Source of the DNA: a virus
Lineage: Duplodnaviria; Heunggongvirae; Uroviricota; Caudoviricetes
Length of the DNA stretch: 64,000 nucleotides
Direction: 5' to 3' (one strand)
IMG/VR virus record: IMGVR_UViG_3300024341_000001
Below the pieces are notes generated by a model. It was not told the origin of the DNA. It made no database searches and saw nothing but the letters and a program-made list of their open reading frames with translations. The position numbers and the translations under genes are program-made. Within the stretch, counting starts at the first letter, position 1. Each line of letters starts with the position of its first letter. Shown in pieces: positions 47,600 through 51,104 of the stretch.

Positions 47600-47848
47600 T
47601 TAATGCATCCTTTCTATGTCGCTAAATAGTGTGTCAGAAAATAATTTTCGTCTGGATGCCGCTATTCTTTCATCCTCTGTACATTGACAACCAACATAGT
47701 TGTTTGTTTTGCGATCAAGAATTAACACTTCATCACAATTGGGGCAACATGTGATGCCGGTGGCAACAACTACGGCCTTTAACAGATCCTCATTTAATTC
47801 TCCGCATGCTTTGCATTTAAAATTCTCTTTCCATTGTTGAAATTTCAT
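47600..47848 (-). CDS. zinc-ribbon protein
   Basis: CKACG...CCPNCD...CQC. Confidence 0.35.
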   Translation of the reverse strand: MKFQQWKENFKCKACGELNEDLLKAVVVATGITCCPNCDEVLILDRKTNNYVGCQCTEDERIAASRRKLFSDTLFSDIERMH

Positions 47849-49551
47849 TAACCTGCCTCATATATTTCTTTTTGATTAATAATAATGATTTTCTTACCCT
47901 TGAACATTAGCATTGCACCTTCCTCAGTACCTATGCAGTTAAAATCTTTATATTCATTTTTCTTCCAATTATATCCGCGCACTAAATCAGTGTGCGCAGT
48001 ATAAATAGTATTTGAATGAAATGCTAAAGAATCTAAAGGTACATTATATCTTAATGCATCATTCTTAAATAAGACGTTTGTTTTCTCAATGACATATGTG
48101 ACGAACTTACCCGTCGTAGATTCATATATAAATAACCATCTTTTAGTAATATCATCATAATGCAGTCCGTAGCTTGTCGGTCGAATAATATCGGCTAACT
48201 CGATAAAATTTTTATCGGTTTCAATAATAGTTTTATGATCATAAAAATTAATAACACAATATGAATCAGAAGCCACTGAATAAACGTGATTTATAGCAAC
48301 ATGCGCTAATACCTGTGGCGAGACTCCTGCCGCACCAACAATATTGCACTTATGTAGTGTCAGGTTAGGAGAAACATAGAAGAATTGTTTATCCGCCGGC
48401 TTTATTATTACGTTACTGTTATGTAATTTTGGTATTGTAGCCGATCCCAAAAAAATGTTGTCGGTATTAGTTGTTAACTTGGTACCGTCATCATAAAAAT
48501 AAGTCTTTTCGCCAAAGTGTATAAGTGCCTGCGCCGCTGTTTTTATATGACATACATATCCATTTGAATCTATATACGAGTTATCATTTAAAAGTTCTAC
48601 ACGATCTCTACTTGCAAATATTTTAGTCATAATAATACCAGCTGTTGTCGGAACTTTTTGTGGTTGTATCGGCTTTAATGTGGCCTTAAAACATACCGGA
48701 CATTTATCATACTTTGCATAGTAATCATTGCCATGTGCTTGACAACGCGTTAGGTTTTCTGCGAACTCATCCAATGATTTTACAAGCATTATTCGAACAC
48801 CTTGATCGTATATTCGAGACAAGTCCTCGAGAAATCCTGGATACATATATTCCCAGGGATCTATGATTCGTGGTATAATTGCTTTTACTTTTGGATTTAG
48901 TACGGAACGGCCCTTAGACATTCGCTCAAGAAGATCCATATTAGGGCTAACCGTACCACCAAACGGATGTAATCTGGTAAGACTCTTAAAAGCCAAAATC
49001 GCAAAAGAATACGCATCAGTGTTCGCATTAAAATTAGTTCCTTTCAATTTAGGATCCTTAAATGAATCCATTGCCACTACACATGGGTAAGAACCAATGC
49101 TCCAGCTATCAACGTCAAGAATACGCGCGTCCAGCCCCCCAGTAAATACCACATTGGCATCATTTAGATCCCCAATAAAAATATTTTGTGGATGTAGTTC
49201 TAAAATTGTATCACGAACCGATACGAGCATATGAAGAATATCTATTATATGTATATTATATGCTGCAAGTGTTTTTCGACTTGTCAGTGCTCTAAATTCC
49301 TCAATCTCATGCAAATTAGGCATCACATACCCAATAAAATCACCTGCGTAATTGTATAGTAAATCCTTGGGAGCTACAACTGTAGTGGGTAATTTTGTAT
49401 GTAATAATATTTCGAGTTTATTTCTTTTGGCATCCAGATCAGCCCCGGGTTTAAAGACCTTAAGTACATCTCCGGTAGTCTTGCCAATATAGATTTGCCC
49501 TTCACCGCCTTCGGCAATTGGTAGACCTAGTGTACGTTTATCTATTTTCAT
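47848..49551 (-). CDS. eukaryotic-like Ser/Thr protein kinase
   Basis: Gly-loop AEGGEGQIY, Lys VLKVFK, catalytic loop IGDLNDANV, DVD (DFG-like), and an activation segment TDAYSFAILAF. Confidence 0.6.
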   Translation of the reverse strand: MKIDKRTLGLPIAEGGEGQIYIGKTTGDVLKVFKPGADLDAKRNKLEILLHTKLPTTVVAPKDLLYNYAGDFIGYVMPNLHEIEEFRALTSRKTLAAYNIHIIDILHMLVSVRDTILELHPQNIFIGDLNDANVVFTGGLDARILDVDSWSIGSYPCVVAMDSFKDPKLKGTNFNANTDAYSFAILAFKSLTRLHPFGGTVSPNMDLLERMSKGRSVLNPKVKAIIPRIIDPWEYMYPGFLEDLSRIYDQGVRIMLVKSLDEFAENLTRCQAHGNDYYAKYDKCPVCFKATLKPIQPQKVPTTAGIIMTKIFASRDRVELLNDNSYIDSNGYVCHIKTAAQALIHFGEKTYFYDDGTKLTTNTDNIFLGSATIPKLHNSNVIIKPADKQFFYVSPNLTLHKCNIVGAAGVSPQVLAHVAINHVYSVASDSYCVINFYDHKTIIETDKNFIELADIIRPTSYGLHYDDITKRWLFIYESTTGKFVTYVIEKTNVLFKNDALRYNVPLDSLAFHSNTIYTAHTDLVRGYNWKKNEYKDFNCIGTEEGAMLMFKGKKIIIINQKEIYEAG

Positions 49552-50255
49552 AGTACTATTGTGATATCATCCTGAAAATATGAATAATTACGATTTATGA
49601 AAAGCTTAACCGGTACTTCCTTTCCTTTTATTAATAACTTAAGAAATTCTTCTTGCAATAGCGGTGGAAGTTTAAAATAAAACCGAAGTCCATCTGAAGC
49701 CAGTCCAACACATTTATATTGTGACTTAGAAAACGAATACTTTTTTATTTCTATGGGATCTTTGTGTGTGCTTAATCGTGTTTCAGGGATAAAATCATAC
49801 GCAAAAAATGGGACGTATTTTTCCGTTGGTGCCAGTTCTTCAAATGTAATTTTATCATTGTGATCTATAAGAATCAAAAACCCATCTCCTATAGTTTCAG
49901 CTTCGAAGGTATCTTGAGTTTCAAAGAGTAATAGCGTAGTAAATAATAAACATTCTCTGATAAAGTCTAAATTTATTTGATCGAGGGCCGTTGGTTTTGT
50001 GGTTAAGTCAAATCTTGAGGCAATGTGATTGAACATATGGCTTAAGTGTGGAGTATCCATATAAGCGCCGCATTCGAGTTCTCGTAGCGCAGCGCATTTC
50101 TTAAAGTACCAATAAGCCATAATTACCCCAAACTCGGAAAACTTACTTTCTCCGCAGCCGTCCGCCACAAATTTTATCTTCGAGTCCTCGTAACCAATAT
50201 CCTGCTTGTTCAATCCCGAATCTAAATGATATTTTCCTATTTTGTTGATTACCAT
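49548..50255 (-). CDS. PP2C-family Ser/Thr phosphatase
   Basis: VADGCGES (DGHGG-like), GLASDGL, and C-terminal DDITIVL. Confidence 0.6.
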   Translation of the reverse strand: MVINKIGKYHLDSGLNKQDIGYEDSKIKFVADGCGESKFSEFGVIMAYWYFKKCAALRELECGAYMDTPHLSHMFNHIASRFDLTTKPTALDQINLDFIRECLLFTTLLLFETQDTFEAETIGDGFLILIDHNDKITFEELAPTEKYVPFFAYDFIPETRLSTHKDPIEIKKYSFSKSQYKCVGLASDGLRFYFKLPPLLQEEFLKLLIKGKEVPVKLFINRNYSYFQDDITIVL

Positions 50256-50438
50256 CTAAACGCTCCAATTGTGCTAATGTATAAAAAATTGAGTTTTCTC
50301 TACAGCGACTGCATAAACCGTGATATATCAGATTATATACACATAATTCCTGTACAGGTGATGCATTACAACAAATCGAGTATCTACGTGTTTCCATAAA
50401 ATGGGGTCGGAGAGATTAACTCCCCGACCCTAAATATC

Positions 50439-51104
50439 TTACACGAAAAACGCATCCTGTGAAGGAGTTACTGCTTTTGAATTTTCGATCACAGATTTCG
50501 ATAAACAATTAAATGCGATTCGTAAATCATGTGCAGAACTTTGCACGGTTAAAAGATTCTTAAATCCGAGATCTTTCGCTACAGTATCGGCTTCACCGCC
50601 AAACGATACAAAAGCCGTGGTGATCTCTTTGTTATTTAAAGCTTCAATGGCTTGACGTGCTTTAGCGGCGCTTTTACGAGAACAGGTATCTTCACCATCA
50701 GAGAAGACAGCAATAACAGCGCGACAACGCATGCCCTGGCTCTTCAGATGATCCATGTACTCTGTGAGTTTTGTGGCACTTTCAACTATTACATCATACA
50801 ACGTAGTACCACCGGCGGCTGAATATGACCCATCAAAATCCTTGATTGGTTTATAGCCACTAATATCAGTAATATCACTAAAAGTTGCTCTGGCAAGTAA
50901 GATTTTATTCTCTTCTTTTGATGCTGTCAACGCACCTTTAAAGTCCGCTAAACACTTCTTCATATCCTCGACATATGGCGACATAGATCCAGAAGCATCG
51001 ACGGCTACACATACTAGGTGTACTTCCTCACTATCGATTTCCTCGATAGAAGTATTTTCGATCTCTAATTCATCTAAACCAAGTACCGTTTTTTCTTCGT
51101 TCAT
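50439..51104 (-). CDS. TerY-like vWA domain protein
   Basis: MIDAS motif VAVDASGSMS, GGTT, and SDGED. Confidence 0.65.
   Translation of the reverse strand: MNEEKTVLGLDELEIENTSIEEIDSEEVHLVCVAVDASGSMSPYVEDMKKCLADFKGALTASKEENKILLARATFSDITDISGYKPIKDFDGSYSAAGGTTLYDVIVESATKLTEYMDHLKSQGMRCRAVIAVFSDGEDTCSRKSAAKARQAIEALNNKEITTAFVSFGGEADTVAKDLGFKNLLTVQSSAHDLRIAFNCLSKSVIENSKAVTPSQDAFFV

Follow-up and report, generated by a model that had tools for sequence, protein, structure and literature searches.

A TerY-P-type triad joined to a nicotinamidase-like gene in a probable jumbo phage: a candidate phosphorylation-gated module for NAD+ salvage

We analysed a window of 64,000 nucleotides from a Caudoviricetes virus (IMG/VR record IMGVR_UViG_3300024341_000001; "the window" denotes this whole stretch), in which four adjacent genes encode a nicotinamidase-like amidase, a TerY/YegL-like vWA protein, a PP2C-type Ser/Thr phosphatase and a Ser/Thr kinase. 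The last three are supported as a TerY-P-type triad, a gene set that is already known. Their assembly with the amidase into a four-gene unit is new as far as the literature was searched: no paper was found in which vWA, PP2C and kinase genes are combined with a nicotinamidase or isochorismatase gene, in a search that did not cover the original 2012 TerY-P paper. With slightly more conviction than doubt, we favour the reading that this cassette is a phosphorylation-gated nicotinamidase module for the salvage of nicotinamide adenine dinucleotide (NAD+).

All four open reading frames (ORFs) were recovered on the minus strand where a preliminary description of this DNA had placed them, including the contiguity of the vWA, PP2C and kinase genes. 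In the direction of transcription, the cassette comprises the amidase (gene 1; 51101-51982; 293 aa, isochorismatase superfamily), the vWA protein with its metal ion-dependent adhesion site (MIDAS) (gene 2; 50439-51104; 221 aa), the phosphatase (gene 3; 49548-50255; 235 aa, Pfam PF13672 PP2C_2) and the kinase (gene 4; 47848-49551; 567 aa). Judged by homology these are genuine genes, as the kinase and the amidase have full-length homologues with E-values as low as 1e-235 and 1e-162, respectively. The nicotinamidase-like gene had been said to follow the triad directly; it does adjoin it, but on the coding strand it lies upstream. From 43.7 to 64 kb of the window, all transcription runs in the minus direction. 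The amidase stop codon overlaps the vWA start codon as ATGA, and the same ATGA overlap joins the PP2C stop to the kinase start, so that the module consists of two translationally coupled pairs, amidase plus vWA and PP2C plus kinase. The two pairs are separated by a gap of 183 nt, which contains, directly after the vWA stop codon, a GC-rich hairpin (50404-50430, minus strand; 11-bp stem with eight G-C pairs and a weak T-tract), recognised by a terminator-like match and from the sequence itself. This hairpin may be an attenuator or the boundary of two sub-operons; we give it little weight because the large vWA-PP2C gap is not present in the closest related phage locus (L001). Downstream of the cassette, a small ORF for an 82-aa zinc-ribbon protein (47600-47848, minus strand; phrog_2945, E 2.9e-4) begins on the stop codon of the kinase gene. 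L001 likewise has a small ORF after the kinase, and the bacterial loci do not.

The linkage of the four genes was assessed in a kinase-seeded set of 74 bacterial and 78 viral loci, the ORFs of which were searched with the four window proteins. The order amidase-vWA-PP2C-kinase on one strand is found in 113 of the 143 loci with a kinase match, and nearly all exceptions are contigs that end inside the cassette or CPR (candidate phyla radiation) and phage loci with a divergent PP2C or vWA protein that only profile hidden Markov models (HMMs) detect. Starting from the amidase, the triad lies downstream in every one of the viral loci with enough downstream DNA (63 out of 63); the other 11 amidase-seeded loci run out at contig ends, apart from one deletion derivative and one jumbo-phage version with the genes spread out. 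This two-way co-occurrence speaks against the amidase and the triad being neighbours by chance, a reading that is rejected, and the nicotinamidase-like gene, treated as a bystander in the preliminary description, turns out to belong to an obligatory four-gene unit. It is also the best conserved member. In a Clostridia metagenome-assembled genome, for instance, the kinase homologue is preceded by a PP2C, a vWA protein and a 306-aa amidase orthologue, with identities to the window proteins of 57% for the amidase, 53% for the vWA protein, 33% for PP2C and 34% for the kinase. Some bacterial CPR loci seemed to lack PP2C; this was rejected, as the gap holds a divergent 295-aa PP2C (PF13672, E 2.6e-16, by profile HMM). 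Two variants support a two-part build of the cassette: locus L151 has the permuted order PP2C-kinase-amidase-vWA, which fits the division into an amidase-vWA and a PP2C-kinase pair, and a 168-kb phage contig carries NadE and PncB as an insertion that parts the vWA gene from the PP2C gene. Neither the Escherichia coli locus nor a distant triad from a gut phage (MT836238.1) has the amidase, which marks the four-gene form as a distinct clade. Decay of the cassette was observed as well: in L171, L178 and L191 (around 8922-9754), PP2C and most of the kinase are deleted and a truncated vWA protein runs into a C-terminal kinase fragment, with the amidase intact.

The identity of the triad was examined against the E. 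coli K-12 locus yegL-pphC-(yegJ)-yegI by aligning family profiles with hhalign. The kinase aligns to YegI with a probability of 98.8% (E 4e-17) along the entire kinase domain plus the CPxC ribbon, the vWA protein to YegL with 90.6% (E 1.3e-6) including the C-terminal LSxS Ser-rich tail, and the phosphatase to PphC with 78.5% (E 1.7e-5). The profile link to YegI is thus strong and those of the vWA protein and PP2C are weaker. Together with the gene order, which is that of E. coli, these alignments support the TerY-P-like triad of the preliminary description, with the homology of PP2C and the vWA protein being modest. As summarised in PMC11090510 and PMC4978471 after Anantharaman et al. 2012, TerY-P combines a TerY-like vWA protein, a PP2C phosphatase and a Ser/Thr kinase with a zinc ribbon as its C-terminal fusion. 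Models from PADLOC gave no TerY-P-type match for the cassette proteins, only weak generic kinase matches; the E. coli proteins YegL, PphC and YegI, used as a control, were equally negative. The PADLOC result was therefore rejected as an argument against TerY-P membership and carries no weight, because the E. coli triad itself gives no match.

The kinase consists of three parts. A Hanks-type Ser/Thr kinase domain of the YegI type (residues 1 to ~265; 48757-49551, minus strand) is followed by a zinc knuckle or ribbon (residues ~267-290; 48682-48753, minus strand) with the pattern C270-x2-[H/D/C]273-x10-C284-P-x-C287, of which C270, C284, P285 and C287 are invariant and align with the C...CPxC of YegI. 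The remainder (residues 296-567; 47851-48666, minus strand) is a family-specific all-beta domain of about 28 strands. The window kinase has no Pfam match of its own, which explains the caution of the preliminary description, and PF00069 is found in most of its homologues. An alignment of 24 sequences shows an invariant G-loop (E14-G15-x-E17), the catalytic loop G-D128-L-N130-x-x-N133 and, replacing DFG, a loop D146-x-D148-S149-W150; the catalytic residues K31, D128, N133 and D146/D148/S149 are intact and invariant across the family. Kinase activity has been demonstrated for YegI in spite of a catalytic loop of the form VGDxxQxS and a DSD loop, and this activity depends on each of K39, D141, the DSD loop and S162 (bioRxiv 10.1101/819920). 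The equivalents in the window kinase are K31, D128 and D146-V-D148-S149. The phosphatase exceeds the Pfam cut-off for PF13672 (36.4 bits versus 24; E 5.2e-9) and its metal-binding residues D19, D32-G33, D124-G125, D188-G189 and D229-D230 are invariant among 43 homologues. The vWA protein scores below the Pfam VWA threshold (E 1e-3) and matches phrog_7371 (E 3.7e-9); its MIDAS residues (D36-x-S38-x-S40, T100 and D136) are conserved in 55 homologues and the Ser-rich C-terminal tail carries the invariant S202, S204 and S209. The kinase Lys and Asp and the PP2C metal-binding Asp residues, which the preliminary description had singled out for checking, are therefore all present and invariant, and neither a kinase deprived of its catalytic residues nor spurious PP2C motifs are seen. 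Because the YegI-type loops, experimentally required in YegI, and the PP2C and MIDAS residues are intact, the kinase/phosphatase switch is plausibly active.

The all-beta domain is private to this family. It is modelled confidently by AlphaFold (pLDDT, the predicted score in the local distance difference test, ~90) and is confined to the C-terminus of the kinase family (62 representatives among 1.84 billion proteins). For this region of about 270 aa, no Pfam or PDB sequence match, no internal sequence repeats and no OB-fold signature were detected, and a fold search with the kinase was dominated by kinase-domain matches. We propose that it is a sensor or input domain, or a partner-binding domain.

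The amidase is a divergent member of the nicotinamidase-like proteins, as far as sequence and fold comparisons can tell. Its family profile finds only nicotinamidases among PDB sequences and the motif WPxHC.Q.T.G, which includes the third metal ligand, aligns to WPRHCVQNTPG of Pyrococcus horikoshii PncA and WPVHCVKNTWG of yeast Pnc1. The top Foldseek matches are likewise nicotinamidases (2wta, 2h0r, 1ilw and 3o93; E 3e-8 to 1e-5), the best being those of A. baumannii, yeast and P. horikoshii. Within 57 dereplicated homologues, the Asp-Lys-Cys triad is preserved almost without exception (K185 and C231 in 57, D42 in 55), and all three residues are invariant in the 26 close homologues. The metal ligands are kept nearly as strictly among the 57 (D84 and H86 in 56 of 57, H151 in 57 of 57). 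Additional invariant residues are W96, W97, E192, Y194, E200 and D258. The enzyme is predicted to hydrolyse nicotinamide to nicotinate, and its genomic linkage to PncB and NadE supports this prediction indirectly.

That linkage emerged from clustering the neighbouring ORFs in 60 dereplicated loci, with recurrent neighbours confirmed by Pfam. The commonest neighbours are NadE of both the glutamine and the NH3 type, NUDIX proteins (an NrtR winged-helix domain is present in some), phosphoribosyl pyrophosphate (PRPP)-synthetase-like proteins, NAMPT, the nicotinate phosphoribosyltransferase NAPRTase/PncB and canonical PncA. A NadE, NAMPT, PncB, PncA or PRPP-synthetase-like gene lies at most 8 kb from the cassette in 21 of the 60 loci, and this number rises to 27 when NUDIX is counted; in a small control set of 11 unrelated loci, none has an NAD gene, also counting NUDIX. 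Some clusters are particularly compact. A 353-kb Saccharibacteria contig carries NadE-NUDIX-amidase-vWA-PP2C-kinase-PncA-PncB co-directionally, another CPR genome has the co-directional arrangement amidase...kinase-PncB-NadE, and in Clostridia and Lachnospiraceae the cassette is flanked by NAMPT, PRPP synthetase and NadE. NadE is found a few kb upstream of the cassette in the two closest phage relatives. Genes for ter functions, McrBC/CoCoNuT and DNA-processing modules, with which TerY-P is typically associated, are not among the cassette neighbours, which are instead NAD salvage, RNA repair and phage structural genes.

In the window, an NH3-type NAD synthase NadE (59068-59916, minus strand; 282 aa, Pfam PF02540, E 1.3e-60) and a PARP-like ADP-ribosyltransferase with a WGR domain (60726-61964, minus strand; 412 aa, PF00644, E 2.4e-22; WGR, E 2.4e-6) lie 8-10 kb upstream of the cassette. 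NadE is probably a functional partner of the cassette and would belong to the same pathway. The PARP-like enzyme would consume NAD+ and release nicotinamide, by which it may be connected to the cassette. The scanned ORFs comprise most of those of at least 250 aa and the cassette neighbourhood, on 64 of about 215 kb; the only NAD-related proteins among them are NadE, a NUDIX protein and the PARP-like protein. Gut jumbo phages have been described to carry NAD+ synthesis genes together with PARP; that description (PMC11662467) makes no mention of a kinase or vWA protein. As an observation in its own right, the PARP-like protein is of a eukaryotic style, in a phage and 10 kb from the cassette.

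The cassette is distributed over phages and bacteria. The window has portal-like, primase- and polymerase-type PHROG matches and its close relatives are IMG/VR contigs. An amidase identical to that of the window is encoded on a contig of 215 kb, so that the phage is probably a jumbo phage. Other carriers include jumbo phages and megaphages of 215-595 kb, among them uncultured megaphages of 485 and 595 kb, as well as a 244-kb contig. In a large group of Lachnospiraceae (pro)phages, the cassette is located just upstream of the portal, head-morphogenesis and major-head genes. Chromosomal cassettes occur in Lachnospiraceae, Clostridia, spirochaetes and Saccharibacteria/CPR bacteria. A megablast search of the 5.6-kb region against a phage collection returned no match, and tblastn with the kinase gave five weak or partial matches in this collection, all to uncultured phages, so that no cultured phage with the cassette was found. 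Phage cassettes are often accompanied by RNA-repair genes and a Ro60/TROVE-like protein, and an RNA ligase and a phrog_850 TROVE-like protein also stand beside the cassette in unrelated phages. On the 244-kb phage-like contig (L157), a PF25189 'Tad8' protein (12560-12814) is encoded two genes after the cassette; a literature search on the name Tad8 yielded nothing relevant.

Nicotinamide is the universal by-product of NAD+ cleavage. Its source in the infected cell could be the phage's own PARP-like enzyme or NADase immune effectors of the host. The amidase would turn it into nicotinate and thereby open the Preiss-Handler route (PncB, NadD, NadE), of which the phage itself would supply NadE. 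The kinase may sense a cue through its private C-terminal beta domain and phosphorylate a partner, for which the vWA protein, at its invariant Ser-rich tail, and/or the amidase are the most plausible candidates; PP2C would erase this mark and reset the switch. Through its MIDAS site, the vWA protein could retain the amidase, or some other partner, or let it go. For the phage, the advantage would be that NAD+ remains available in a jumbo-phage infection, also under NAD+-depleting host defence. Tentatively, we go one step further and suggest as a possibility, although one about which we are more doubtful than confident, that the TerY-P-type switch directly gates the nicotinamidase, which would then be the first output defined for such a triad, that phages, ranging from temperate viruses of Lachnospiraceae to megaphages of 600 kb, and ultra-small CPR bacteria thereby share a phosphorylation-controlled valve on NAD+ recycling, and that the valve offers a third route, by way of Preiss-Handler, against NAD+-depleting immunity.

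Several observations weigh against the gated nicotinamidase module that we favour. The amidase scores far below the curated cut-off for PncA (NCBIfam NF008623; 43.9 bits versus 174, E 2.3e-11) and falls short of that for isochorismatase (Pfam PF00857; 22.7 bits versus 27, E 1.2e-4). Its N-terminus is extended by 35 aa, some 60 aa are inserted between the metal ligands, and its model (pLDDT 76.7) is poor in the active-site loops (<50). Five loci, four from Lachnospiraceae and the CPR locus L055, have a canonical PncA as a neighbour of the cassette, which argues against the amidase being just a redundant nicotinamidase. Over half of the 60 loci have no NAD gene within 8 kb, and PncB, NadD and NAMPT were not found among the scanned ORFs of the window. 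Finally, in the account given by PMC7699616, anti-phage defence is the only role assigned to TerY-P by experiment.

One alternative is that the cassette serves anti-phage defence or superinfection exclusion, as a form of TerY-P whose output is the amidase. A competing phage would be sensed, the kinase switch would turn on the amidase, and the removal of nicotinamide would either starve the invader's NAMPT-based NAD+ reconstitution or relieve the product inhibition of Sir2 or TIR NADases and so speed up abortive infection. A TerY-P system was indeed reported to defend against T7-like phages (Gao et al. 2020, as related in PMC7699616 and PMC11090510). Many copies of the cassette are accessory cargo next to portal and head genes in Lachnospiraceae (pro)phages, a typical spot for phage-carried defence genes, and a new effector partner would fit the habit of classical triads of attaching to varied effector modules, for example in CoCoNuT (PMC11090510). 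Nonetheless, the neighbourhoods hold NAD biosynthesis and RNA repair genes and do not resemble defence islands, the CPR cassette is embedded co-directionally in a Preiss-Handler cluster, and the cassette is present in jumbo phages and megaphages of 215-595 kb. The cassette also has no PADLOC match, which is uninformative given the equally unmatched E. coli triad. Overall, we consider a defence function unlikely.

A second alternative concerns the substrate. The amidase may act on a larger or unrelated amide, such as nicotinamide mononucleotide (NMN), nicotinamide riboside, an NAD-derived immune signal or a nucleoside-like metabolite, with the triad controlling that reaction instead. The canonical PncA beside the cassette in five of the dereplicated loci speaks for this, as do the insertion by the metal site, the N-terminal extension, the extra invariant residues and the sub-threshold scores. 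Moreover, NAMPT and NadE accompany the cassette in several loci in which no NMN adenylyltransferase is visible, a combination in which an NMN deamidase would be useful. The full nicotinamidase signature is kept, however (Asp-Lys-Cys, D-x-H...H and WPxHC.Q.T.G), the profile matches only nicotinamidases in PDB, and the CPR loci L062, L065 and L060, with PncB and NadE and no other PncA, fit a plain nicotinamidase step. We regard another substrate as quite unlikely.

Phage kinases that modify host proteins are known, T7 gp0.7 being one that reprograms host proteins, and the window region is rich in further host-interaction and repair genes, but it is most improbable that the kinase and phosphatase merely take over host proteins next to an unrelated metabolic amidase, given the strict two-way co-occurrence, a gene order that stays the same from phages to distant bacterial phyla, and the translational coupling of amidase and vWA protein, and such a takeover makes no sense for the bacterial cassettes because these are chromosomal. 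The general manipulation of host phospho-signalling that the preliminary description had suggested is accordingly less well supported than control of NAD+ recycling, as the unit is tied to NAD+ salvage genes and not to ter genes or defence islands. Its other suggestion, a counter-defence role, stays plausible, but through NAD+.

RNA-repair and nucleic-acid genes flank the cassette densely on either side (43734-47376 and 52203-55566, minus strand). Downstream of it lie genes for a Pnkp-like kinase/phosphatase (43734-44594), an RlaP-like protein (44582-45298) and the NUDIX protein (45487-45906), all three named solely through orthology to the related phage L001, and an Rnl1-like RNA ligase (46303-47376). 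The upstream genes encode an RNase H (52203-52541), a ClpP-like protease (53868-54482) and a candidate RNA ligase (54475-55566) that seems orthologous to the RNA ligase gene of L001; all of these are on the minus strand.

The eukaryotic vault particle contains three protein types, namely the major vault protein (MVP), a PARP and a TROVE protein. All three are encoded in this one phage: an MVP-like protein (11262-13742, minus strand; MVP shoulder, 9e-27, and a Vault repeat), a Ro60/TROVE protein with a vWA domain (39031-40821, minus strand; TROVE, 5e-38; vWA_Ro60, 2e-54) and the PARP-like protein. Near the Ro60 gene, no Y-RNA-like match was found at the Rfam gathering threshold; the sole Rfam/ARAGORN match in the window is a tRNA-Ala with anticodon TGC (42078-42151, minus strand). 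The window further encodes a reverse transcriptase (16549-17565, minus strand; RVT_1, 2.2e-20) near a weak radical-SAM-like ORF (15125-16027), a 2026-aa ORF on the strand opposite to most genes (24830-30910, plus strand) and a Lon-like ATP-dependent protease (32301-34481, minus strand; phrog_4871, 5.7e-233) that adjoins a primase-like gene (34489-36606).

Since the definition of TerY-P in 2012, its mechanism has, to our knowledge, remained unexplained, and we know of no substrate or output. A triad that is always tied to an enzyme of known chemistry would provide the first concrete candidate output for the TerY-P switch. Destruction of NAD+ is the way in which many defence systems kill, and phages respond by building NAD+ up again. 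If the proposed role in NAD+ salvage is true, a regulated conversion of nicotinamide to nicotinate, carried by prophages, megaphages and gut jumbo phages, would add an undescribed branch to this counter-measure; should the cassette serve defence instead, it would represent a new manner of manipulating the nicotinamide pool. The NAD clusters of Saccharibacteria and other CPR bacteria that contain the cassette also suggest control of NAD+ salvage by Ser/Thr phosphorylation in organisms with a minimal metabolism.

Phages have other means of restoring NAD+. Osterman et al. are said to have described in 2024 two phage NAD+ reconstitution pathways, NARP1 and NARP2, comprising Adps with Namat or Nampt with Nmnat. 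Neither enzyme pair was found among the scanned window ORFs, and the route in the window would differ by proceeding through deamidation and the Preiss-Handler pathway under a phosphorylation switch. The likely benefit, NAD+ upheld during infection, would be shared with NARP1/NARP2 and with the NAD+ gene sets of gut jumbo phages. The window resembles the latter also in combining NadE, a PARP-like enzyme and a nicotinamide-processing enzyme in a large gut-type phage (PMC11662467).

Compared to the nicotinamidases PncA and Pnc1, the amidase of the cassette shares the Asp-Lys-Cys triad, the Asp/His/His metal site and the WPxHC.Q.T.G motif, and it adjoins PncB and NadE in many loci. It differs in being about 100 residues longer, with the N-terminal extension and the 60-aa insertion, in scoring below the curated thresholds, and in being always coupled to a kinase, a phosphatase and a vWA protein, at times beside a canonical PncA.

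The closest parallel for the triad is E. coli yegL-pphC-yegI, where the same three protein types occur in the identical order vWA, PP2C and Ser/Thr kinase. The window kinase has in common with YegI a non-canonical GDxN..N/S catalytic loop, DxDS in place of DFG and a zinc ribbon straight after the kinase domain, and the ATGA overlap between phosphatase and kinase genes reported for E. coli REL606 (bioRxiv 10.1101/819920) is also present in the window. In contrast, the E. coli locus has no amidase, the obligatory fourth gene of the phage-borne cassette, and the window kinase ends in its private 270-aa all-beta domain, unlike the C-terminal region of YegI. The partners of the cassette set it apart from TerY-P at large as well, being NAD+ salvage and RNA repair functions and not ter genes, McrBC/CoCoNuT or DNA-processing modules. 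As for the TerY-P defence system of Gao et al. 2020, the architecture of vWA protein, PP2C and kinase is alike; its kinase, as summarised in PMC11090510, carries an OB fold and not a zinc ribbon, whereas the cassette kinase combines a zinc knuckle with a large beta domain in which no OB-fold signature was detected, and the cassette is found in phage genomes and NAD clusters.

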